Positions 16,681 to 29,543 of a DNA stretch of 32,000 nt are shown here, piece after piece; positions within the stretch are counted from its first letter, which is position 1; every line of letters starts with the position of its first letter. Under the pieces are notes generated by a model. That model was given only the letters and a program-made list of their open reading frames with translations. It was not told the origin of the DNA and searched no databases. The stretch is from NCBI GenBank assembly GCA_965224465.1, contig OZ245049.1:2580001-2612000 (forward strand), read 5' to 3'. The DNA is from Flavobacteriaceae bacterium (GTDB taxonomy: Bacteria; Bacteroidota; Bacteroidia; Flavobacteriales; Flavobacteriaceae). The position numbers were made by a program, and so were the translations under genes.

Positions 16681-18687
16681 ATGACGACTTTAAATTCGAG
16701 AGTACCACAAGGCGGTCCAATTAAAGATAAATGGACAACCTATAAAGATCAAATAGACCTAGTAAACCCAGCCAACAAGCGTAATATTGATATTATTATT
16801 GTAGGAACTGGATTGGCAGGAGGATCTGCTGCTGCAACCTTAGCAGAACAAGGATATAATGTAAAAGCATTTGCTTATCAAGATTCACCACGTAGAGCAC
16901 ACTCTATTGCTGCACAAGGGGGAATTAATGCTGCAAAAAACTATATGGGTGATGGAGATTCAAACTATCGCTTATTTTATGATACGGTAAAAGGAGGAGA
17001 TTACCGTTCACGTGAAGCAAACGTACACCGTTTGGCAGAGGTTTCTGGTAATATTATTGACCAATGTGTGGCACAAGGAGTTCCTTTTGCACGTGATTAT
17101 GGTGGATTGCTAGACAACCGTTCTTTTGGAGGGGTATTAGTCTCTCGTACTTTTTACGCCAAAGGACAAACAGGACAACAATTATTACTAGGATGTTATT
17201 CAGCAATGAACCGTCAAATAGCACGTGGTAAAATTGAAATGTTCAACCGTCACGAAATGTTAGACGTAGTAATAGTAGACGGAAAAGCCCGTGGTATTAT
17301 TGCACGTGATTTAATTACTGGAGAAATTGAGCGCCACTCAGCACATGCTGTTGTAATAGCCACTGGAGGCTACGGAAACGTATACTTCTTATCTACAAAC
17401 GCTATGGGATCAAATGCTACTGCTGCATGGAAAATCCATAAAAAAGGAGCGTTTTTCGCAAATCCTTGTTTCACTCAAATCCACCCTACTTGTATTCCTC
17501 GTTCTGGAGATTATCAGTCAAAATTAACATTGATGTCTGAATCTCTACGTAATGATGGACGTATCTGGGTACCTGGAAAAATTGAAGATGCAAAAGCAAT
17601 CCAACAAGGAAAATTAAAACCTACAGAAATTGCTGAAGGTGATAGAGATTATTACTTAGAACGTCGCTATCCTGCATTTGGTAACTTAGTACCACGTGAT
17701 GTTGCATCAAGAGCTGCAAAAGAACGTTGTGATGCTGGTTACGGAGTAAATGCTACCGGAGAAGCTGTTTACCTTGATTTTGCTGCTGCCTTTCAACGTT
17801 ATGGAAAAGAGCAAGCAAAAATAAAAGGAATCAAAAATGCTTCTGAAGCAGAAATAATCAAATTAGGACAAGGAATTATCGAAGCTAAATACGGTAACTT
17901 GTTCCAAATGTATGAGAAAATTATCGACGAGAATCCTTACGAAACTCCAATGATGATATATCCTGCTACACACTACACCATGGGAGGTGTTTGGGTAGAT
18001 TATAACCTAATGACTACCGTACCTGGATTGTACTGTATTGGAGAAGCAAACTTCTCTGACCACGGAGCAAACAGATTAGGAGCCTCTGCATTAATGCAAG
18101 GATTGGCAGATGGGTATTTTGTATTGCCATATACTATTGGTGATTATTTATCTGACGATATTAGAACAGGAAGAATTCCAACCGACACTCCAGAATTTGA
18201 TGCTGTAGAAAAAGAAATCAAAGACAAACTAGATTTCTTTATCAATAATAAAGGAACACACTCTGTAGATTATTTCCATAAGAAATTAGGGAAAATTATG
18301 TGGGACAAAGTAGGAATGGGACGTAACGAGAAAGACTTAAAAATAGCGATTAAAGAAATTGCTGAATTAAGAGAAGACTTCTGGAAAAACGTAAAAGTTC
18401 CTGGAGACTTAAACGAAATGAACCCAGAACTTGAAAAAGCAGGTAGAGTTGCTGACTTCCTAGAATTAGGAGAATTATTTGCCTTAGACGCCTTGAACAG
18501 AAACGAATCTTGTGGAGGTCACTTCCGTACAGAGTACATAACTGAAGACGGTGAAGCAAGACGTGATGATAAAAATTACGCCTACGTTGCAGCATGGGAA
18601 TTCAAAGGAAAACCAAGCGAAGCAATATTGCACAAAGAAGAATTAGAATTTAAAGACATCGAGCTTAAAACTCGTTCCTATAAATAG
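16681..18687 (+). CDS. sdhA: succinate dehydrogenase/fumarate reductase flavoprotein subunit
   Basis: 668 aa. [14 protein letters not shown] fold, the [14 protein letters not shown] covalent-FAD His region, and HYTMGG. Confidence 0.95.
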
Positions 18688-18720: not shown

Positions 18721-19110
18721 ATGGGAACCGTAACATCATTTAAAGAATTAATCGTTTGGCAAAAGCCAATGACTTTAGCGATGGATATTTACCCCCTTAC
18801 CAAGACTTTTCCTAATGATGAAAAATTTGGATTACTAAGTCAACTTAGAAGATGTCCCGTTTCTATCCCTTCAAACATCGCTGAAGAATGGGGACGTAAA
18901 TCAACTAAAAGCTACCTGCATTTCTTAAGAATTGCAAATGGCTCATTGGCAGAATTAGAAACTCAATTAATTATAGCTAAAGAATTAAACCATAGTACCG
19001 ATACGCAAAAAGCAGATGGACTGATTATTGAGGTTAGCAAAATGTTAAACTCAATAATCCGAACATTATCGGAACGGGGCTACCCCCTTCCACTTTTCGC
19101 CTATCACTAA
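18721..19110 (+). CDS. four-helix-bundle protein (TIGR02436 / 23S rRNA intervening-sequence protein / Avd-like family)
   Basis: 129 aa. FKELIVWQKPMTLAMDIY..T..FP..EKFGL.SQLRR..VSIPSNIAEEWGR and GSL.ELETQL are the family signature. Confidence 0.85.
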   Translation: MGTVTSFKELIVWQKPMTLAMDIYPLTKTFPNDEKFGLLSQLRRCPVSIPSNIAEEWGRKSTKSYLHFLRIANGSLAELETQLIIAKELNHSTDTQKADGLIIEVSKMLNSIIRTLSERGYPLPLFAYH

Positions 19111-19122
19111 AAACTAACAGTT

Positions 19123-19869
19123 ATGAATTTAACGTTAAAAATTTGGAGACAAAAAAGTGCGCAATCAAAAGGAAAAATGGTTGAGTACAAAGTAACAGAT
19201 ATCTCAGAACACATGTCATTTTTAGAAATGATGGACGTGTTAAATGAACAATTAGTTGACTCTAATGACGAGCCAATTGCCTTTGACCACGATTGTCGTG
19301 AAGGAATTTGCGGTATGTGTTCGTTGTTCATTAATGGAGAAGCTCATGGACCTGACCGTGGTATTACTACCTGTCAGTTACACATGCGTACCTTTAAAGA
19401 TGGAGACACCATCTATATTGAACCATGGAGATCAAAAGCATTCCCAGTAATTAAGGATTTAATCGTAGACCGTATGGCTTTCGAACGCATCCAACAAGCT
19501 GGAGGGTATGTTTCTATCAATACTTCTGGAAATACACAAGATGCCAACGCAATTCCTATTTCAAAATTTGATGCAGATCTATCTATGGATGCTGCCTCTT
19601 GTATTGGATGTGGTGCCTGTGTAGCTACCTGTAAAAACTCAAGTGCAATGTTGTTTACCGCTGCTAAAGTATCTCAATTTGCTTTGTTACCACAAGGTAG
19701 AGTTGAAGCGATAGAACGTGTTCAAAACATGGTTGCCCAAATGGATTTAGAAGGTTTTGGTAACTGTACCAACACCGGAGCTTGTGAAGTGGAATGTCCT
19801 AAAGGAATAACACTAGAAAATATTGCACGTATGAATCGTGAGTATTTAAAAGCAAGTTTAGTCAGATAA
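19123..19869 (+). CDS. sdhB: succinate dehydrogenase/fumarate reductase iron-sulfur subunit
   Basis: 248 aa. Cys clusters [20 protein letters not shown] and [10 protein letters not shown]. Confidence 0.95.
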
Positions 19870-21535: not shown

Positions 21536-22768
21536 ATGACAAAAGACGAGTTAGCCAACATTGAAAAAAAGGCATTGGATCAATTATTATCAGGAAAAAG
21601 TTTATTCGGAAAAGAAGGTGCCTTTGCTCCTTTAATGAAACAATTTCTTGAGAAAGCATTGGAAGCAGAAATGGAATCACACCTTAGTGAAGAGGAACGT
21701 TCTAAAGGGAATAAACGTAATGGAAAGGGCAAAAAGACTGTTAAAACTAGTATTGGTAGTTTTGAAATAAGCACGCCAGCGGATAGAAATAGTAGTTTCG
21801 AGCCTGTTCTGATAAAAAAGCGTCAAACCATTTTAGCAGATAATTTATCAGATAAGATCATTGGATTATACGGCCTAGGAATGAGCTTACGCGATATTTC
21901 TGGTCATATAAAAGAGATGTATGATACAGATATATCACACACTGTTTTAAGTCAAATTACAGATAAGATCATACCAGATATAAAACAATGGCAAAGTCGT
22001 CCAATAGAACAGATGTACTGCATTGTTTGGCTTGACGCTATGCATTACAAGGTAAAAGTAGACGGTAAAATACAACACAAAGCACTTTACAATGTTTTAG
22101 GAGTAAATAAAGAAGGGATCAAAGAGGTTTTAGGAATGTATATTTCAGAAAGTGAAGGCGCAAATTTTTGGCTTCAAGTATTGACAGACCTTAATAACAG
22201 AGGGCTTAAGGATATCCTAATTGCCTGTACAGACAACTTAAAAGGGTTTTCAGAAGCTATCTTGAGTGTATTTCCTAAAACACAAATTCAAAAGTGTATT
22301 GTTCATCAAATTCGTAATTCTTTAAAGTATATAGCTTCCAAAGACCAAAAAGAATTTATTCGAGATTTAAAGCTTGTTTACAAGGCTGTTAATAAGGATA
22401 TTGCTGAGTTGGAGTTATTGAAATTAGAAGAAAAATGGGGAGAAAAATACCCTGTAGTTTTAGAAAGTTGGAACCGTAATTGGGAAGAGTTATCTCAGTT
22501 TTTTCAGTATACAGAACCTATCAGAAAAATAATTTACACAACAAATGCAGTAGAAGGTTTTCATAGACAGGTAAGAAAAGTAACTAAAACAAAAGGGGCT
22601 TTTACCAGTGATATGGCACTATTAAAGCTTGTTTACTTAGCAACAAAAAATATCGAAAAAAAATGGACAAACCCTTTACATAATTGGTGCTTGACAATTC
22701 AACAATTATATATTAAATTTGAAGATCGAATAACGTTGGATTTACATAAAAACGGAAGCAATTCGTGA
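21536..22768 (+). CDS. IS256-family (Mutator-type) transposase
   Basis: 410 aa. The segment LFGKEGAFAPLMKQFLEKALEAEMESHL...KRNGKGKKTVKTSIGSFEISTPADRNSSFEPVLIKKRQ and the DDE region are typical of IS256 transposases. Confidence 0.92.
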   Translation: MTKDELANIEKKALDQLLSGKSLFGKEGAFAPLMKQFLEKALEAEMESHLSEEERSKGNKRNGKGKKTVKTSIGSFEISTPADRNSSFEPVLIKKRQTILADNLSDKIIGLYGLGMSLRDISGHIKEMYDTDISHTVLSQITDKIIPDIKQWQSRPIEQMYCIVWLDAMHYKVKVDGKIQHKALYNVLGVNKEGIKEVLGMYISESEGANFWLQVLTDLNNRGLKDILIACTDNLKGFSEAILSVFPKTQIQKCIVHQIRNSLKYIASKDQKEFIRDLKLVYKAVNKDIAELELLKLEEKWGEKYPVVLESWNRNWEELSQFFQYTEPIRKIIYTTNAVEGFHRQVRKVTKTKGAFTSDMALLKLVYLATKNIEKKWTNPLHNWCLTIQQLYIKFEDRITLDLHKNGSNS

Positions 22769-23032: not shown

Positions 23033-25555
23033 TTGCTAAACAAAACTAACTCGACAATATCAAAATACACTTCCACGGATAAAAGCGGAAATTACACCTT
23101 AACTATTAACAATGAATTAAAAGCATTACAAATCGAATTTCGATTGATTTCATTCCACAAACAAACCTTTACCTTAGAAAATGTAAAAACAAGGAATAAA
23201 ACTACTATTTTAGATGTCACCTTAAAGTCAAGGACAACCGCCTTGGACGAAGTCCTTATAAAATCACCAAAAAACAAAGCTATCACAGTAAAAAAGGATA
23301 CGGTGTTTTTTGAAATCAACCGTTTTAAAGACGGTACTGAACTGGTGGTAGAAGATATCATTAAAAAACTTCCAGGAATGGAAGTAGGAAATAATGGGAA
23401 AATATTTTTTAAAGGAAAACCTGTTGAAAATATATTATTAGATGGAGACGATTTGTTTGGAAGTAATTATACAATGGGCACCAAAAATATAGATATTGAT
23501 ATGATAGATAAATTGTCTGCCATTGAAAATTATATAGAAAACCCATTATTACATGGACTTGAAAATTCAAAAGCTGTAGCGATTAACCTTATTTTAAAAA
23601 AAGGAAAAACTGACTTTTCCAACACTACTTCAATTGGTCTAGGCATAGAGAACAAACAGGATTTAAAGTCAAGTTTACTAGGCGTATCTAAAACACTAAA
23701 ATCGTTTTCAACCATTAGCTATAATAATGTGGGAAAAGAAAATAGTGCTTATGATTATTTTGGATCCAATGCTACCTCTTTAGAAAGCATAAAAGAACAA
23801 ACATTGAGCTTACCTAAAATAATAGAAGACCGGATTTTAAACACAGAAATAGGAGAAGAACGTTCCCGTGTTAATCATAATTTTTTCACCAACATAAACG
23901 GCATTTATAAAATAACAAAGAATTTAGGAATGCGAATAAATCTGGACTATAAAAGCGATAAATTATTACGTAACCTAGAAAACAGGACTTTATTTACAGA
24001 CGCTTTAAACAATGATTCTATTTTACAAAGCAATGCTATTAAGAAAACACCAAATATAAAGGTGCTTAAGGTAAAATTAAATTACAAATTATCTGCGAAT
24101 AAAATATTAGAATATAACAGCAAATTAAAAAAATCCAACATTAAAACTATCGAAAAAACTGAACGGAATGGATTAAATCAAAATAGTAGAAGTAGTTTTA
24201 AAGAAAACTTGTGGAGTCAGCAATTGGCATATACAAATAGAATAAATTCAAAGAGTGCCTTTATAGGAAAGATTGTAGTCAATTCATCTAGCTTACCTCA
24301 ACAACTCATTATTTCTCCAGAATATAGGTTTAGCAATACCCCAGAAGAAGGGCAACAAACAGTGAATTTGAACAAGGATTATTATAAATTAACCACCGAG
24401 TATTTAACAGCAAAAAACAACCTCACTTCTAAGTTCTATTTGGGCTATTCCTTAGAGGATCTTAAATTAAATTCTTTACTCGCTAACACAAACAAAACAT
24501 TGCCTGTATCAAATAATGATTTTAACTATAAAACCAAACACCTATGGATAGGGAGTTCTTTGTTTTTCAAAAAAAAGAAATGGAGGTACCAAGTCAAAGC
24601 TACATTTAATTACTTGAAGCAGCGCATACACTTCTATTCTATTTCCGAAAAGGATGACCTTAATAGATTTTTTGTTACACCTTCAATCAATGTTTCATAT
24701 CACATCTCTAAAAAATCAAACTTAAACGTTGGAATGTACTATACAGAAAGCAAACTAAATGAAAAAGACTTGTTTAGACAACCAATTTTTACATCCAATG
24801 AAAATGCCATTAGCAATAATGTGAATTTAAAAATGATAAAGAAATACAAGGTAAAACTAGGGTATAATCACAACGATTTTTATAATCTTTTTCAGTTAAA
24901 TACAAGTTTAAATTTTATAAGACAAAAAAACAATTTAGTTTCCAATGTATCATTTGTAAATACCTTTTTTGAATCATTAAGAACGTTGGAATCTGTTAAT
25001 TATGACACAACATTCCTAAACCTAAACTTGGACACCTATTTGAATGGGATAAATTCAAATTTAAAATTTACAGGTTCTTACGGAGTAAGTACTTTTAAAA
25101 ACATAGTGAACAACTCGCAAGTTAGGAATAACATTGGGTATTCTGGATTCTATAAAGTATCGTTAAAAACAGGATTTTTAAACAGGGTTAATTTCGAAAA
25201 CAGCTTAGAAATAATGACAAGTAAATTTAAGACAAATACAATGCAACCGATCAACAGTATTTCTTATCACAACGTGTTTAAAATTTATATAAAACCAACA
25301 CAAAGGATTCGTTTGGTTTCAAGCATTGATGTTTATTCCCCAAACAAAAAAATGAACAACCTTTATTATTTTATTGACAATTCACTTTTCTATACATCAA
25401 AAAACAATAAAATAAAATACACAATTACTGCCAAAAACTTAACAACTAAGCCAAACAGCTATAGTAGAACGGTTGTTTCCGATTTTGCAGTTAGTACCAT
25501 TTCACATAATATATTAAAACCTTATATTTTGTTTACGGTAGATTTCAGGTTGTAA
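23033..25555 (+). CDS. outer-membrane beta-barrel family protein (CarboxypepD_reg domain + TonB-receptor-like barrel); 5' end displaced by IS256
   Basis: The frame is open upstream to 22853 and encodes KKLKTVLVLLFIVFTSVAQNKIKGIVTNSKGAPLPYVTV (signal peptide plus carboxypeptidase-regulatory fold). No ATG, GTG or TTG occurs before TTG 23033. A plug-like LPGMEVGNNGKIFFKGKPVENILLDGDD is present, and the protein ends in F/L-rich beta strands. Confidence 0.7.
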   Translation: MLNKTNSTISKYTSTDKSGNYTLTINNELKALQIEFRLISFHKQTFTLENVKTRNKTTILDVTLKSRTTALDEVLIKSPKNKAITVKKDTVFFEINRFKDGTELVVEDIIKKLPGMEVGNNGKIFFKGKPVENILLDGDDLFGSNYTMGTKNIDIDMIDKLSAIENYIENPLLHGLENSKAVAINLILKKGKTDFSNTTSIGLGIENKQDLKSSLLGVSKTLKSFSTISYNNVGKENSAYDYFGSNATSLESIKEQTLSLPKIIEDRILNTEIGEERSRVNHNFFTNINGIYKITKNLGMRINLDYKSDKLLRNLENRTLFTDALNNDSILQSNAIKKTPNIKVLKVKLNYKLSANKILEYNSKLKKSNIKTIEKTERNGLNQNSRSSFKENLWSQQLAYTNRINSKSAFIGKIVVNSSSLPQQLIISPEYRFSNTPEEGQQTVNLNKDYYKLTTEYLTAKNNLTSKFYLGYSLEDLKLNSLLANTNKTLPVSNNDFNYKTKHLWIGSSLFFKKKKWRYQVKATFNYLKQRIHFYSISEKDDLNRFFVTPSINVSYHISKKSNLNVGMYYTESKLNEKDLFRQPIFTSNENAISNNVNLKMIKKYKVKLGYNHNDFYNLFQLNTSLNFIRQKNNLVSNVSFVNTFFESLRTLESVNYDTTFLNLNLDTYLNGINSNLKFTGSYGVSTFKNIVNNSQVRNNIGYSGFYKVSLKTGFLNRVNFENSLEIMTSKFKTNTMQPINSISYHNVFKIYIKPTQRIRLVSSIDVYSPNKKMNNLYYFIDNSLFYTSKNNKIKYTITAKNLTTKPNSYSRTVVSDFAVSTISHNILKPYILFTVDFRL

Positions 25556-25603
25556 CCAAATGAGGCAATACAATATTACATGAAGATTTATTATGTAAAC
25601 CCC

Positions 25604-25627
25604 CCAAACCGTTGGTTTGGTTTTTTT
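25604..25627 (+). terminator. Rho-independent terminator after the beta-barrel gene
   Basis: CCAAACC (25604-25610), loop GTT, GGTTTGG (25614-25620), then T7. Confidence 0.7.
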
Positions 25628-25678
25628 GTTTTGGATGATGGGTATGGCTAGAGATACATTGCATTGCGTCTCTAGCAA

Positions 25679-25702
25679 CATCATCATCATCATCATCATC
25701 AT
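25679..25702. repeat. (CAT)8 trinucleotide microsatellite
   Basis: Eight perfect CAT units followed by CAC. It is intergenic. Confidence 0.95.
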
Positions 25703-25733
25703 CACACCGCATTCGCGGTGCTATTAACAGGCC

Positions 25734-25894
25734 CCACGCTGTGGCTTTTAAATCCCAGTCGGATTACACCCTGAAAACAACCCACAAGAAACGACACACA
25801 AAGCTCCAGAGGAGCGACATGTTAGTAGTAATAAAGCCCCCCAATCCGACAGCTTGAGAGGAGCGACATGTTAATAATGCTAATTAATAGGTCC
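25734..25894 (+). repeat. Nested tandem repeat array, unit 1 (left of the IS66 insertion)
   Basis: The unit is hairpin CCAC-GCT-GTGG, a CA-rich tract, then two copies of AGCTCCAGAGGAGCGACATGTTA (25802-25824, and variant 25851-25874) spaced 49 nt apart. It is near-identical to unit 2. Confidence 0.9.
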
Positions 25895-25922
25895 GTAAGC
25901 GTACGGTAAAGTACACCCTTGA

Positions 25923-27425
25923 TTATTTATCAACAGGCTTCCAATTTTGAGGCAGTAACTCCGAAAGTTTATTAGCCTTATGTTCTGGTAATCTATTAAG
26001 GACATCACATAGCCACGTATGTGGGTTTACGTTATTCTTTTTGCAAGTAGCAAAAAAGCTATAAAATAGAGCTATGTTTTGTGCGGACTCATGACTGCCA
26101 GCAAAGAGATAATTTTTTCTGCCAATAGCTAAAGGTCTTATGGCATTTTCTATATTATTGTTGTCTATTTCAAACCTGCCATCATCGATGTATAGTTTTA
26201 GGTTTTGCCATATTTTAAGAGTATAAGCAATTGCTTTTCCTATGGCACTTTTAGGCAGTACGTTTTTTCGCTCTTTTGTAAGATAAATTTCTATTCCGTC
26301 TAAAACAGGTGATGCATGTTTTTCTCTATATGCTTTAGTTTGCTCAATAGTTAATTCTTGTTCTTTTATTTTACGTTCTATCTTGTATAGCTTTTGAATT
26401 TCCAACAAAACAACATCCGCTCTTTTAGGATCATTATCCAGCGCCTTCTCAAAATACCGCCTAGCATGAGCCATGCAACCTAAAAGAGTAATTTCTCCTT
26501 TTGTTGTTAAGTTTTGGTATGCAGCATACCCATCGGACTGTAGTGTCCCATTGAAATCTTTAAAAAACTCTTCTGGAACAACTTTTCCTCTCCCTTTATT
26601 GTATTCAAAAAGAACTAAATTTTTAACAGGATTTCGATACACCCACATATACCCTCTGTGTGTTGATTTTTTCTTGTCTTTATCTAAAACCTTTATAGGA
26701 GATTCGTCTGCTTGAATATAATTGGCATTTTCTAAAAACTGAGCCTTAAATGTATCGTATAAAGGAGCGATAAGCTCCGAACTTTTAGATACCCATCCTC
26801 CAATTGTTGATTTACTTACTTTTAAATCTTGTCGTTTAAAAATTTGAATTAATCTGTAAAGTGGTAAATGGTCTACAAATTTTGAAATAAGTATAAAGGC
26901 CAATAAACTTGCTGATGCATTTCCTTTAGGTATCGGTAAGCTTGGTAATTCTGCTATAACAACGCCTTTTTCTTCCGGAAGTGCATATTTAGGTCTTACA
27001 ATTCGTCTTACAAAAACGGAAAGAGGCGTTATTTCTAAAAGTTCTGTAACTTCTTCTCCTATTTTTACAGCTCCTTCTTCTATGTGCTTAGGCTCTATAA
27101 TCTCTTCTACTCGCGGAAAATGCGCAGGTATAGAAGAGCGAACAGGTTTTTTCTTTCCTTTCTTCTTTTGTTTTCTTTCGTAGATTACAATATGTTTTTT
27201 GTATGCCTCTTCTTTCTCAGCTATTATTTTTCCGAAAAGCGACAATTGATTTGTGTCAACAGGGATAAAACGTTCGCTTTTAGACCCGAAAACCATTCTT
27301 TTAAGCTGCTCGTATTGCTGCTTAATTTCAGCTAGTTCTTGAGCTGTTTTTTCAAGTTCAATCTTTAAAATTACCAGCTCTTTTTGTATGTCTATTGTAT
27401 TGTTTTCCACACTATAAATATACAA
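25923..27425 (-). CDS. IS66-family transposase (TnpC)
   Basis: 500 aa. N-terminal coiled coil, the MVFGSKSERF motif and a DDE core (QADESPIKVL ... LQSDGYAAY ... CMAHARRYF). Confidence 0.9.
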   Translation of the reverse strand: MYIYSVENNTIDIQKELVILKIELEKTAQELAEIKQQYEQLKRMVFGSKSERFIPVDTNQLSLFGKIIAEKEEAYKKHIVIYERKQKKKGKKKPVRSSIPAHFPRVEEIIEPKHIEEGAVKIGEEVTELLEITPLSVFVRRIVRPKYALPEEKGVVIAELPSLPIPKGNASASLLAFILISKFVDHLPLYRLIQIFKRQDLKVSKSTIGGWVSKSSELIAPLYDTFKAQFLENANYIQADESPIKVLDKDKKKSTHRGYMWVYRNPVKNLVLFEYNKGRGKVVPEEFFKDFNGTLQSDGYAAYQNLTTKGEITLLGCMAHARRYFEKALDNDPKRADVVLLEIQKLYKIERKIKEQELTIEQTKAYREKHASPVLDGIEIYLTKERKNVLPKSAIGKAIAYTLKIWQNLKLYIDDGRFEIDNNNIENAIRPLAIGRKNYLFAGSHESAQNIALFYSFFATCKKNNVNPHTWLCDVLNRLPEHKANKLSELLPQNWKPVDK

Positions 27426-27468
27426 AAAACAAGACTAAATAGCAGGTAAAACCTACAGTTTTATTGAA

Positions 27469-27822
27469 TTATTTAGCCTCTAAATAACGTTCGTTTTTCT
27501 GAGTATTTATAATACTAATTCCGTCTAAAACCATAACCATTTGGGTATAACTCAAAACTACTAATCCATCTTCAATGTCGTATTTTGGAAGCTCAAAAAT
27601 ACCTCGTTCCAATCGTTTATAATACAGTACAAATCCTCCAGGTCGCCAATGAAGAAGTTTTAGTTTATTTTTTTGCTTATTGATAAATGCATAAACACTA
27701 TTTCTATCTCGCTCTTGTTCCATGTGCTCACTAACTAATCCACTTAATCCATTAAATCCTTTTCGCATATCAACTGCAGATAAGTGATAATAATACGTGT
27801 GTTCTGTACCTAATCCTAACAT
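27469..27822 (-). CDS. tnpB: IS66 Orf2-like accessory protein TnpB
   Basis: 117 aa. DMRKGFNGLSGLV ... LKLLHWRPGGFVLYYKRLERGIFELP is typical of PF05717. Confidence 0.88.
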   Translation of the reverse strand: MLGLGTEHTYYYHLSAVDMRKGFNGLSGLVSEHMEQERDRNSVYAFINKQKNKLKLLHWRPGGFVLYYKRLERGIFELPKYDIEDGLVVLSYTQMVMVLDGISIINTQKNERYLEAK

Positions 27823-27909
27823 TTATATTTTCGTTTTTGTTTAGATGCAAAAATTAGATTATTTTTAACTTCTTACAAGATGTAGTTCTCCGTACGCTTA
27901 CATAGGTCC

Positions 27910-28436
27910 CACGCTGTGGCATTTAAATCCAAGTCGGATTACACCCTGAAAACAACCCACAAGAAACGACACACAAAGCTCCAGAGGAGCGACATGTTAG
28001 TAGTAATAAAGCCCCCAATCCGACAGCTCCAGAGGAGCGACATGTTAATAATGCTAATTAATAGGTCGCCACGCTGTGGCTTTTAAATCCCAGTCAGATC
28101 ACCCACAAAAAACGACACAAAAAACCCAAACCCACAATCACACAAAGCTCCAGAGGAGCGACATGTTAATTGTAATAAAACCCTCCCAATCCGACAGCTC
28201 CAGAGGAGCGACATGTTAATAATGCTAATTAATAGGTCGCCACGCTGTGACTTTTAAATCCCAATCAGATCACCCACAAGAAACGACACAAAAAAACCCA
28301 AACCACAATCACACAAAGCTCCAGAGGAGCGACATGTTAATAGTAATAAAGCCCCCCAATACGACAGCTCCAGAGGAGCGACATGTTAATAGCAAAAGCG
28401 CCCCATATCCAATAGTTCCAATGGAGCAACATATCA
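27910..28436 (+). repeat. Nested tandem repeat array, units 2-4 plus a degenerate terminal motif
   Basis: Units are 27910-28068, 28069-28239 and 28240-about 28400. Motif copies lie at 27977, 28025, 28146, 28196, 28317 and 28366, with a degenerate copy at 28414-28436. The intra-pair spacing is 48-50 nt and the unit period is 169-171 nt. Confidence 0.92.
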
Positions 28437-28448
28437 ACAAGGATTCCC

Positions 28449-28456
28449 TATCTTTG
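28449..28456 (+). promoter_or_regulatory. Candidate Bacteroidota -7 box (TATCTTTG) for the methyltransferase gene
   Basis: It matches TAnnTTTG, lies 23 nt upstream of ATG 28479, and sits immediately after the last degenerate repeat motif. Confidence 0.35.
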
Positions 28457-28478
28457 CAAAAAAGCAAACAAAACAATA

Positions 28479-29543
28479 ATGTCTGATATAACACTAAATA
28501 AACCAACGCCAATCCTCACTACACCTCAAACAATCCCGTTTAAACGTGGATCGGATAGCAGGGCTTCCATACAAGAATTAGAAGAAGGAAATGCCGTTTT
28601 AATCACAGCATTTTACGGAAACGGTTTGGATCTAATGCTAGAGTTAAAGAAGCATCTAACACGCAAATTTCCAAAAAAAACATTTTTAGAACAACGCAAA
28701 TACAGAGAAGCCTATCACAGACTCTCTAGTCTTATTTTAATAGAAATTAAAGAACATAAATTAGCGGTAAAAAAAGCACCAGCCATCGGTTGGTTGGAAA
28801 AGCTATATCCAGAAACTCCTGATTTCACCTTAACATTTTCACAAGTTCAAGGGCTGAACAGTTCTTGGCAATGGTACACAAAAGGAATCACAGTTCCCGT
28901 ACTTAGAAATAAATTACATCCGTATTACGGAACCTACTTCCCTACCCGTTTCGATCACTTGATCCTTTTTGATAATTGGTTAAAACGCTACGAAGGCCCT
29001 AAAAAAACAGCCATAGATGTAGGGACTGGAAGTGGAGTACTCGCTTTTCAATTGGTAAAGCACGGTTTTCAAAAGGTCTTTGGAACGGACAGCAATCCAA
29101 ATAGTATTGTAGGATTAACCGATTTTATGGGAGCTACAAAACTGTCAAGAAAAGTAGAATTAGACCATGGGAATCTTTTTGGAAAGTGGACAAAACAGAC
29201 CGAACTGATCATCTTTAACCCACCGTGGATTCCAAAACTAAACAATATCGAAAGTGTAGACGAAGCTATTTATTACGACGAGAAGCTTTTTCCTGACTTT
29301 TTCGAAAAAGCAGTAGACATGCTTTTACCTGACGGGAAATTAGTACTTATCTTTTCTAATTTAGCTCAAATAACAAAGGTCACCAAAGCCCATCCTATAA
29401 AAATGGAGCTCACCAATGGTGGACGATTTAAATTGGAAAAATGTCATACAAAATCGGTAAAAGTGAGTTCTGAAAAAACAAAACGCGACCCTCATTGGCG
29501 TGGTTCTGAAGAAGTAGAACTTTGGATTCTTGTAAAAAAATAA
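28479..29543 (+). CDS. class I SAM-dependent methyltransferase with an N-terminal uncharacterised domain (N6-adenine / N5-glutamine-type NPPW motif)
   Basis: 354 aa. Motif I is IDVGTGSGVLAF and motif IV is IIFNPPWIP. The first 170 aa or so have no family I can name. Confidence 0.75.
   Translation: MSDITLNKPTPILTTPQTIPFKRGSDSRASIQELEEGNAVLITAFYGNGLDLMLELKKHLTRKFPKKTFLEQRKYREAYHRLSSLILIEIKEHKLAVKKAPAIGWLEKLYPETPDFTLTFSQVQGLNSSWQWYTKGITVPVLRNKLHPYYGTYFPTRFDHLILFDNWLKRYEGPKKTAIDVGTGSGVLAFQLVKHGFQKVFGTDSNPNSIVGLTDFMGATKLSRKVELDHGNLFGKWTKQTELIIFNPPWIPKLNNIESVDEAIYYDEKLFPDFFEKAVDMLLPDGKLVLIFSNLAQITKVTKAHPIKMELTNGGRFKLEKCHTKSVKVSSEKTKRDPHWRGSEEVELWILVKK

Follow-up and report, generated by a model that had tools for sequence, protein, structure and literature searches.

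What kind of element is the tandem array of short hairpins that stands upstream of a methyltransferase gene in a Flavobacteriaceae bacterium? The array lies in a stretch of 32,000 nucleotides (NCBI GenBank assembly GCA_965224465.1, contig OZ245049.1, positions 2,580,001 to 2,612,000, forward strand), which we call the window and whose numbering we use throughout. An initial annotation described repeated units built around the 23-mer AGCTCCAGAGGAGCGACATGTTA, a hairpin followed by a short tail, and likened them to repetitive extragenic palindromic (REP) sequences and bacterial interspersed mosaic elements (BIMEs). REPs and their REP-associated tyrosine transposases (RAYTs) are the classic example of a host that retains a transposase along with many tiny, non-autonomous repeats. 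To our knowledge they have been studied almost only in Proteobacteria, with class 2 enzymes. We conclude that the array is probably a BIME-like cluster of a widespread REP-like element, partnered with a Y1 enzyme of subclass 1.2. The likeness to REPs and BIMEs held up, in that the motif occurs in other genomes as dispersed, intergenic, covarying hairpins that bracket Y1 genes.

The array motif belongs to a dispersed family of covarying hairpins

The window has eight plus-strand copies of the 23-mer AGCTCCAGAGGAGCGACATGTTA, seven of them exact and one with two mismatches that break the stem, and the 23-mer is absent from 100 shuffles of the sequence. Together with a decayed copy at 28414-28436, this agrees with the eight good copies and one decayed copy counted in the initial annotation. 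To look for the motif in other genomes, as that annotation had proposed, we scanned one genome per species in 8-kb tiles for the 20-nt core GCTCCAGAGGAGCGACATGT. The core is present in at least 118 tiles from at least seven phyla, so it is not unique to this locus. Among the tiles listed, the Bacteroidota are represented by Flavobacterium, Salinimicrobium, Chitinophagales, Saprospiraceae, Cytophagales and Bacteroidales, and the other groups are Chlorobiaceae, Melioribacteraceae (Ignavibacteria), Acidobacteriota (Pyrinomonadaceae, Blastocatellia), Verrucomicrobiota, the planctomycete Loosdrechtia and Poribacteria. Several genomes, such as Loosdrechtia YC1 and the Poribacteria chromosomes, account for many separate tiles in the list.

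The element has a G+C-rich stem of 5 bp (sometimes 7 bp) with a loop of 3-4 nt, and a tail formed by N[C/A]AT[G/A]T about 2 nt after the stem and (A/G)TAG 2-4 nt further on. A 5-bp stem, its triloop and the tail together take up about 30 nt, in the 20-40 nt range of REP palindromes. Near the seeds (the core matches), the tail consensus is g(a/c)[C/A]AT[G/A]T(t/c)(t/a)(A/G)TAG(a/c)a. The stems of non-seed copies differ in sequence and include GCCCC/GGGGC, GTCCC/GGGAC, GCTTC/GAAGC, GCGCC/GGCGC, GCACC/GGTGC and GCCAC/GTGGC; G-U pairs are tolerated. When all 90 non-seed [C/A]ATGTNN[A/G]TAG sites are taken without selection on structure, a perfect 5-bp Watson-Crick hairpin precedes 57 of them, against a rate of 1.2% at random positions, with no fewer than ten stem sequences among these hairpins. 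The covariation test that the initial annotation had suggested also gives a clear signal. In an ungapped alignment of 48 non-seed copies, partly selected for pairing, 51 pair cells are doubly changed versus 12.7 in shuffles, and none of 500 shuffles reaches 51. The signal is lost in a control in which the partners are slid by 1-3 columns.

We built a covariance model, R1, solely from the non-seed copies of other genomes. Because this model of foreign copies finds the window copies, scoring them at 31-46 bits (E 1e-7 to 1e-11), they belong to a large family.

The copies have a characteristic placement. Although 82% of the tile sequence is coding, 113 of the 127 seed copies are intergenic. The classifiable spacers comprise 50 co-directional, 27 convergent and 9 divergent ones, while the corresponding shares of spacer length are 62%, 22% and 16%; the copies are thus enriched between convergent genes and depleted between divergent genes. 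Within co-directional spacers they lie more often near the 3' end of the upstream gene (33 versus 17), and the dispersed copies have a weak strand bias (31 versus 19). The spacing of same-strand neighbours peaks at 49-52 nt, a period that recurs across phyla, and tail-to-tail inverted pairs are the other typical arrangement. Some Flavobacteriaceae loci (Flavobacterium) have clusters in the order ++--. Salinimicrobium sp. WS361 (locus L092, 3780-5090) has a 1.3-kb array between unrelated convergent genes, with no adjoining methyltransferase. Its composite units (201 nt x3.9 and 161 nt x2.7) each combine a pair of motifs at a distance of 49 nt with a C-rich tract and a hairpin of the CCCTCC/GGGAGG type, and they read as the same grammar as in the window with a different filler. 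These are the habits of REP and BIME elements and not those of a strand-specific RNA gene.

The motif is associated with a Y1 gene of subclass 1.2

We clustered all-against-all the 789 open reading frames (ORFs) of the 118 listed tiles. The only enriched neighbour is a Y1_Tnp protein of about 150 aa, found in 8 of the 118 tiles listed. As for ties to any other neighbouring gene family, only common families recurred (ABC ATPases, TPR proteins, dehydrogenases). Seven of the eight Y1 proteins have in common DH(I/T)H, WQ and Y(I/V)xNQExHH, and the eighth is a canonical IS200 transposase. They match PF01797 with E-values of 1e-19 to 1e-28, and the IS200 model NF033573 with 52-77 bits (cut-off 55). 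In the survey of Quentin et al. 2018 (PMC6006769), subclass 1.2 belongs to class 1 and is characterised by DH[IV]H, WQ and a YIKNQKEHH-like motif in about 150 aa. It is described there as close to the IS200 transposases, without the properties of an insertion sequence (IS), and with 1.7 members per genome; its table entry reads 'REP: no'. By signature, length and low copy number, the motif-adjacent proteins are of subclass 1.2.

In L081 (Pyrinomonadaceae) and L062 (Ginsengibacter), the Y1 gene is bracketed by inward-pointing motif pairs. We collected an independent sample of 80 metagenome loci fetched by the Y1 protein alone, with no use of the motif. R1 finds 273 matches in these 359 kb, distributed over 68 of the 80 loci. 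By a strict regular expression, the motif density at 250 bp or less from the Y1 gene is 3.1-3.2 per kb against a background of about 0.2, an approximately 15-fold increase. Where these loci have the motif, it is almost always found within 600 bp of the gene, in doublets that point inward. Upstream copies are more often on the gene's strand (47 versus 26) and downstream copies on the other strand (62 versus 34); therefore, the tails point at the gene. Both flanks have the same order: an outer copy with a full tail, about 50 nt, an inner copy consisting of the hairpin plus CATG, and then the gene within 5-15 nt.

The sampled Y1 genes are diverged, with 53-68% identity to the query. The tails differ by lineage (CATGT, CATAT, CCTGT, ACTGT, AATGT), and Y1 proteins whose flanks have the same tail type are 59.9% identical versus 55.1% otherwise, a difference not attained in any of 2,000 permutations. 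That tail type tracks Y1 similarity fits co-inheritance or co-evolution of the two. The pairing of Y1 gene and motif is also found in Acidobacteriota, Verrucomicrobiota, Ignavibacteriota and Poribacteria, and a Flavobacteriaceae metagenome-assembled genome (MAG) has the same Y1 and flanking-doublet layout. The Y1 family has 6,981 clusters at an E-value of 1e-10 or less; NCBI annotates its members as 'IS200/IS605 family transposase', and IMG gives them the generic COG name 'RayT'. A PDB sequence search with one Y1 protein returned a spurious match only.

Next to some Y1 genes the motif forms head-to-tail arrays with an exact 49-nt period, as in L176 1150-1835 (at least 14 copies), L094 2240-2390 and L147 4540-4830. 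In L205 1-6462 (Flavobacteriaceae MAG GCA_021648755.1), a type I restriction-modification operon with the order hsdM, Bro-N, hsdS, PDDEXK_3, Y1, hsdR includes a subclass 1.2 Y1 gene together with its doublets.

Architecture of the array in the window

The array is composed of four units of 160-171 bp, two short ones (A) and two long ones (B) in the order AABB, each including two copies of the 23-mer 48-50 nt apart. The repeat finders report 94-97% identity between units. In these respects the description in the initial annotation was accurate. It had also assigned to each unit a separate first module, the hairpin GCCAC-GCT-GTGGC followed by TTTTAAATCCCAGTC. The module does occur four times in the window, but its stem is imperfect in three of the four units: it is CCCAC...GTGGC (4 bp) in units 1 and 2, and GCCAC...GTGAC in unit 4. 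These hairpins are weak minus-strand matches to R1, at 28045-28088 (E 0.02), 25712-25753 and 28216-28259. The orthologous hairpin in a close relative, L199, is a full minus-strand copy, GCCAC-agc-GTGGC-ga-CATAT-TAATAG (R1 37.1 bits, E 3.5e-9). Because of the minus-strand matches and the L199 orthologue, the first hairpin is a diverged, inverted copy of the 23-mer motif and not a separate module.

A unit then comprises an inverted copy and, after a C/A-rich linker, a pair of direct copies spaced 48-50 nt. Where two units meet, the last direct copy of one and the inverted copy of the following unit stand tail to tail, and the spacer that they share can self-pair when folded as DNA. The unit folds better than its shuffles (z = -3.3). 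The unit layout and the tail-to-tail junctions follow the mosaic logic of BIMEs.

Unit 1 (25733-25894, + strand, short type A) has all these parts and is 97% identical to unit 2. Its inverted copy spans 25712-25753 on the - strand, with the hairpin at 25733-25745 and the minus-strand tail CCTGTTAATAG (R1 12.3 bits). Motif copy 1 (25802-25824, +) is an exact 23-mer with 44.7 bits, and copy 2 (25851-25873, +) is the one with two mismatches and a broken stem, AGCTTGAGAGGAGC, with 11.9 bits. Unit 2 (27902-28067, +, type A, from the repeat finders) includes copy 3 (27977-27999, +, 44.7 bits) and copy 4 (28025-28047, +, 31.2 bits), in which the tail ends in TAA in place of TAG. The inverted copy of unit 3, GCCAC-AGC-GTGGC-GA-CCTATTAATTAG (28045-28088, -, 15.9 bits, E 0.02), is tail-to-tail with copy 4. 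Unit 3 itself (28068-28238, +, long type B, from the repeat finders) has copies 5 (28146-28168, +, 37.3 bits) and 6 (28196-28218, +, 31.2 bits). Unit 4 (28239-28413, +, type B, 95% identity in the type B repeat pair) has as its inverted copy the one with the GTGAC stem mismatch (28216-28259, -, 10.6 bits) and includes copies 7 (28317-28339, +, 46.2 bits) and 8 (28366-28388, +, 46.5 bits). The decayed or half copy that follows (28414-28436, +, 11 bits) reads AGTTCC-AAT-GGAGC-AACATATCA, and its 'tail' is ancestral host sequence, as seen by alignment with L199 and the empty site L201. This half copy ends 12 nt before TATCTTTG, which is in turn 22 nt before the ATG at 28479.

Several known kinds of element can be set aside. 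No Rfam family matches the array, neither at the gathering score over the whole window nor at an E-value of 10 or less over 25500-28600, and the Rfam check proposed in the initial annotation thus brought no family to light; covariance models such as Flavo-1, Chlorobi-1 and Poribacteria-1 have no match in the array. That annotation had rejected an array of clustered regularly interspaced short palindromic repeats (CRISPR), rightly: the spacers are conserved between units, and there are no cas genes among the window ORFs. A type III toxin-antitoxin (ToxI-like) locus is ruled out by the downstream gene, which is an MTS methyltransferase, and by the unrelated neighbours of arrays elsewhere.

Plus-strand ORFs run through the repeats at 27916-28086, 28076-28219 and 28247-28486. 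In relatives, the gene caller makes a 65-aa 'protein' from the L199 unit (L199 1-198) and extends the methyltransferase of L204 N-terminally to 391 aa. Such repeats seed spurious hypothetical proteins. The initial annotation had named a hairpin followed by GACAT as a recurrent, often mis-translated string of Bacteroidota; the 65-aa 'gene' of L199 is a case in point, and the range of at least seven phyla shows the remark to have been an understatement.

An IS66 insertion splits the array

An IS66-family element of 2,007 bp (25895-27901, - strand) is inserted exactly at the junction of units 1 and 2 and splits unit 1 from units 2-4. The initial annotation missed this element and had the units occupying the whole intergenic space, which is not the case. 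Likewise, of its eight ACATGT sites in under 0.7 kb, the sites are there (ten in the window, eight of them inside the array), but the length holds only after the removal of the IS66 element, because that element interrupts the array. The element encodes the DDE transposase TnpC (25923-27425, -) and TnpB (27469-27822, -), with no tnpA-like first ORF. Its terminal inverted repeats, GTAAGCGTACGG.../...CCGTACGCTTAC, are 21 nt long, imperfect and start with GTAAGCG. It is flanked by an 8-bp target duplication read from the sequence, ATAGGTCC, at 25887-25894 on the left and 27902-27909 on the right. When the element and one duplicate are removed, the restored junction equals the uninterrupted junctions at 28059-28067 and 28230-28238 except for one indel and one mismatch. 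A search of a plasmid collection gave no match to the element. The IS66 element is a secondary insertion, outside the repeat system.

Local history of the site

Relatives of the window genome have either one unit or none at the orthologous site. In L199/L200, where the methyltransferase is 89% identical to that of the window, there is exactly one unit upstream of the gene. The L199 block has the order (CAA)n, a conserved CACCGC-ATTC-GCGGTG hairpin, inverted copy, C/A tract, two direct copies, half copy and promoter, and its C/A tract joins features of the A and B types of the window. The contig of L199 breaks in its (CAA)n microsatellite (L199 1-52), at the left edge of the block. L201 (enzyme 82% identical) and L203/L204 (in the same 90% cluster as the L199 protein) have no unit. 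In these empty sites the terminator, the conserved palindrome, CTACA joined directly to CAACATATCA(A/C)CAAGGATTCC, the -7 box and the ATG come in direct succession.

The ancestral sequence can be followed on both sides of the block. To the left are an intrinsic terminator of an 840-aa outer-membrane-type gene (25604-25630, +; CCAAACC-GTT-GGTTTGG and a T run), which is also present in the empty sites L201 and L203 and predates the array, and a conserved palindrome, CTAGAGATACATTGCATTGCGTCTCTAG (25650-25677). The palindrome aligns with the array-less L201 and L203, and is ancestral and outside the repeat family. The inserted block has a (CAT)8.7 microsatellite at its left edge (25679-25704, +), at the position of the (CAA)n of L199. 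A CAACAT direct repeat has its left copy at 25676-25681 (+) and its right copy at 28427-28432 (+), where the ancestral sequence resumes; the empty sites L201/L203 have a single CAACAT. The right-hand half motif takes the host sequence CAACATAT as its tail. The block now replaces all sequence upstream of the -7 box of the methyltransferase.

From the relatives with zero units or one we therefore deduce the order of insertion, four-fold amplification and IS66 insertion. An empty site, as in L201 and L203/L204, received one block about 45 nt upstream of the start codon of the methyltransferase, as in L199/L200. Tandem amplification then produced four units, with A and B as different deletion derivatives of an L199-like unit, and the IS66 element landed at the junction of units 1 and 2 last. 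That such close relatives differ in having or lacking the block testifies directly to its mobility, present or recent. For the tandem multiplication of entire units, slippage or unequal recombination between repeats is the simpler explanation.

The palindrome was observed in three places as a near-perfect TAGAGAyrCAATGCATTGCGTCTCTA of 26-28 nt (window 25650-25677, L201 864-889, L203 about 2476-2503). It is placed between the upstream terminator and the methyltransferase promoter, is kept in relatives with and without the array, and may represent an operator or a hairpin element of older date.

The genes around the site include a SusD/fucosidase/GH95 polysaccharide-utilisation locus, sdhA, sdhB, an IS256-family transposase and the 840-aa outer-membrane-type gene; after the array come the MTS-type methyltransferase, a helix-turn-helix protein and an alpha/beta hydrolase. 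The outer-membrane-type gene has the IS256/Mutator-family transposase gene (21536-22768) immediately upstream of it. A '23S rRNA intervening sequence protein' gene (four-helix-bundle, bAvd-like; 18721-19110) is found between sdhA (16681-18687) and sdhB (19123-19869). In L203 sdhB is followed by a 167-aa gene and then directly by the methyltransferase, and from this short stretch it follows that several insertions accumulated there in the window genome.

The neighbouring methyltransferase is a conserved enzyme

The gene after the array (28479-29543, +) encodes an MTS/HemK-like class I methyltransferase with an NPPW motif; it is a neighbour, and no evidence of any kind links it functionally to the array. 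The initial annotation took it for an orphan methyltransferase. It has, however, 2,155 homologues, with about 70% identity across Flavobacteriaceae genera and names such as methyltransferase, RsmD, TrmN6 and PrmA, and it has no match to a DNA-methylase family above cut-off. It is a conserved housekeeping-type enzyme and no orphan DNA methylase. Upstream of it, TATCTTTG (28449-28456, +) is a candidate -7 box of the Bacteroidota type, kept in array-less relatives as TACCTTTG. TAnnTTTG is the known -7 consensus of Bacteroidota, and by its likeness to this consensus TATCTTTG may act as the promoter.

That the ACATGT sites are targets or regulatory sites of this methyltransferase, as the initial annotation speculated, is suggested by the eight of ten window sites that lie in the array beside the gene. 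We regard the idea as very improbable. Among 91 family members independently sampled next to Y1 genes, only 7 have ACATGT, and other lineages have CCATGT, GCATAT, CCTGT and similar sequences in its place. The enzyme is MTS/HemK-like, spread across Flavobacteriaceae and without a DNA-methylase family match above cut-off, the orthologous loci have one unit or none, with relatives whose enzyme is 82-90% identical lacking an array, and the Salinimicrobium array lies between unrelated convergent genes. ACATGT is an incidental by-product of the motif variant of the window genome.

Mechanism and alternative explanations

How would a Y1 enzyme act on such an element? IS608/ISDra2 TnpA and E. coli TnpA-REP are HUH/Y1 enzymes that bind small single-stranded DNA hairpins and cut at a short sequence nearby. 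By analogy with the IS200/IS605 TnpA and E. coli TnpA-REP, we infer that a Y1 dimer may recognise the hairpin folded in single-stranded DNA, for instance at the replication fork. It would then cut and rejoin next to the hairpin, in or near the conserved tail, and so spread or rearrange the elements. With its spacing of 49-52 nt, the doublet may correspond to the pair of sites at which a Y1 dimer would bind hairpins. The idea that insertion occurs 3' of TAG, recreating the target and generating the 49-nt tandem arrays, is speculation only, because single copies have no TAG at a fixed distance upstream.

A number of observations weigh against a REP-like element partnered with the Y1 enzyme. The initial annotation proposed a search for a RAYT or other Y1 transposase; subclass 1.2 genes are indeed bracketed by the motif elsewhere, but the 32-kb window has no Y1 gene, and R1 finds no convincing copy in it outside the array. 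The Y1 proteins miss the NCBI model for REP-associated tyrosine transposases, NF047646 (21-35 bits, cut-off 80), and have Y-x3-Q-x2-HH without the class 2 signature Y-x3-NP; the pair therefore acts like a REP/RAYT pair while standing outside the RAYT protein family. The CAACAT 6-bp direct repeat that brackets the whole block is not expected from Y1 'peel and paste', the block may have arrived by recombination or slippage and not by Y1 action, and its amplification was certainly by recombination or slippage. We located no Y1 cleavage site in the motif, and found no fixed-distance upstream TAG at single copies. The partial selection for pairing in the covariation alignment is answered by the unselected 90 sites for the 5-bp stem only. 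Finally, association and shared ancestry, read from sequences, cannot prove catalysis by Y1.

Could the motifs instead be solo ends, or derivatives akin to miniature inverted-repeat transposable elements (MITEs) or palindrome-associated transposable elements (PATEs), of a selfish IS200/IS605-type IS, with Y1 as the active transposase that moves with its flanks? We consider this unlikely, although it is the rival with the most in its favour. The NF033573 scores of 52-77 bits lie around the cut-off, the proteins are annotated as IS200/IS605, and Y1 is in class 1, next to true IS200 transposases (PMC6006769). The block comes and goes among close relatives as expected of recent mobility, and in one case a type I restriction-modification operon contains a Y1 gene and its flanks in the manner of an insertion. 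Against this, the gene is bracketed by symmetric inverted doublets, whereas IS200/IS605 elements have asymmetric hairpins on one strand, and 110 of the 118 motif-sampled tiles are listed without a Y1 gene. The Y1 genes of the 80-locus sample have diverged to 53-68% identity with the query instead of being near-identical copies, and the subclass is reported at a low number of copies, 1.7 per genome, and without IS features (PMC6006769).

A structured RNA is less likely still, whether as small RNAs in tandem or as a cis-regulatory leader at the 5' end of the methyltransferase mRNA. The eight good copies are all on the coding strand of the methyltransferase and approach its -7 box to a distance of 12 nt, G-U pairs are tolerated in the stems, the unit folds better than shuffles, and E. 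coli REPs are generally known to affect mRNA 3' ends. But Rfam has no match even at an E-value of 10 or less, the strand bias relative to flanking genes is weak (31 versus 19), both orientations occur within clusters, and orthologous methyltransferase genes lack the array. The specific association is with the gene of an enzyme of single-stranded DNA, and none of the observations calls for a role as RNA. Least probable of all, and below even the methyltransferase targets discussed above, is a purely local slippage satellite with no wider identity. None of the other 198 loci has the composite unit, the hairpin plus TTTAAATCC module, the AAAGCCCCC linker or the C/A tract, a search of plasmid records has no match to the array, and the step from one unit to four is a local tandem amplification. 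However, the core is common, 20 of 20 nt, to at least 118 loci in seven phyla, and a model of foreign copies matches the array. The core motif is shared widely, and therefore only the amplification step is local.

Comparison with known systems and implications

The REP-like element with its Y1 partner resembles the REP/BIME-RAYT systems of Enterobacteria and the REPINs of Pseudomonas in having short hairpins outside genes, each with a stem that covaries and a conserved tag beside it, in being dispersed with a bias to the 3' ends of genes, and in forming dimers and mosaic clusters with conserved linkers and possible tandem amplification. It also resembles them in the low-copy Y1/HUH gene bracketed, in other genomes, by inverted copies of its own repeats. 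It differs in that the partner is of class 1 (IS200-like, Y-x3-Q-x2-HH) and not class 2 (Y-x3-NP), the stem has no more than 5 bp and encloses a triloop, and the tag is 3' of the hairpin and bipartite (CATGT ... TAG) instead of a GTAG or CGTC abutting the stem. Moreover, the hosts are the Fibrobacterota-Chlorobiota-Bacteroidota (FCB) and Planctomycetota-Verrucomicrobiota-Chlamydiota (PVC) groups, Acidobacteriota and Poribacteria rather than Proteobacteria. The IS200/IS605 elements (IS608, ISDra2) have the closest relatives of the Y1 enzyme, and the right end of IS608 has a similar hairpin with a conserved short sequence about 10 nt later, in that case the cleavage tetranucleotide. Unlike IS200/IS605, whose left and right ends differ and lie on a single strand, the Y1 gene here has symmetric inverted doublets; the majority of motif copies have no Y1 gene near them, and the Y1 genes are diverged and of low copy number. 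Unlike subclass 1.2 as published, 68 of the 80 sampled genes have flanking hairpin doublets.

The GTAG and CGTC repeats (PMC3733652) are likewise tagged stem-loops that form head-head, tail-tail and head-tail dimers and clusters, and CGTC repeats have been reported in Bacteroidetes and Chlorobi (PMC3733652). The CGTC families have 8-9-bp stems that start with A-T pairs, loops of 4-5 nt and no associated transposase gene, and in the GTAG families the tag is at the stem (PMC3733652). Head-to-tail dimers are rare in both (Di Nocera et al. 2013, PMC3733652), whereas our commonest dimer is the same-strand doublet of 49-52 nt. Compared by description, the motif fits neither family. A REP/BIME-like system is known as a kind, and the present family fails two classical REP/RAYT features, the class 2 enzyme and the GTAG/CGTC tag. 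We found no description of the motif or of a REP partner for subclass 1.2 in the searchable literature, which omits most subscription journals, and a literature search by motif sequences returned unrelated primer matches only. Since the only systematic survey published for Y1 enzymes lists subclass 1.2 as REP-less, the pairing of Y1 and motif would be new.

A more general proposal goes further, and we advance it tentatively, at slightly less than even chances. A REP-type system would extend across the FCB and PVC groups, Acidobacteriota and Poribacteria, with a domesticated class 1, subclass 1.2 Y1; REP-style domestication would have occurred independently, or earlier, on the IS200 side; and the mobile or recognised unit would be the doublet of about 49-52 nt.

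If the pairing is true, a second, IS200-like branch of Y1 enzymes is accompanied by repeats of its own in many phyla that are dominant in the environment. The orphan subclass annotated throughout as 'IS200/IS605 family transposase' would gain a likely substrate, and there would be an explanation for thousands of small spurious ORFs and of breaks in the assemblies of Bacteroidota, Acidobacteriota and Poribacteria genomes. The compact hairpin-plus-tail would also be a convenient substrate for the biochemistry of target recognition by Y1. In the window, a cluster landed about 45 nt upstream of the start of a conserved gene, was amplified four-fold and became a landing pad for IS66. It might affect the expression of the methyltransferase, and the series of relatives with zero, one and four units provides a ready-made test of the effect of such an element on the expression of a neighbouring gene.

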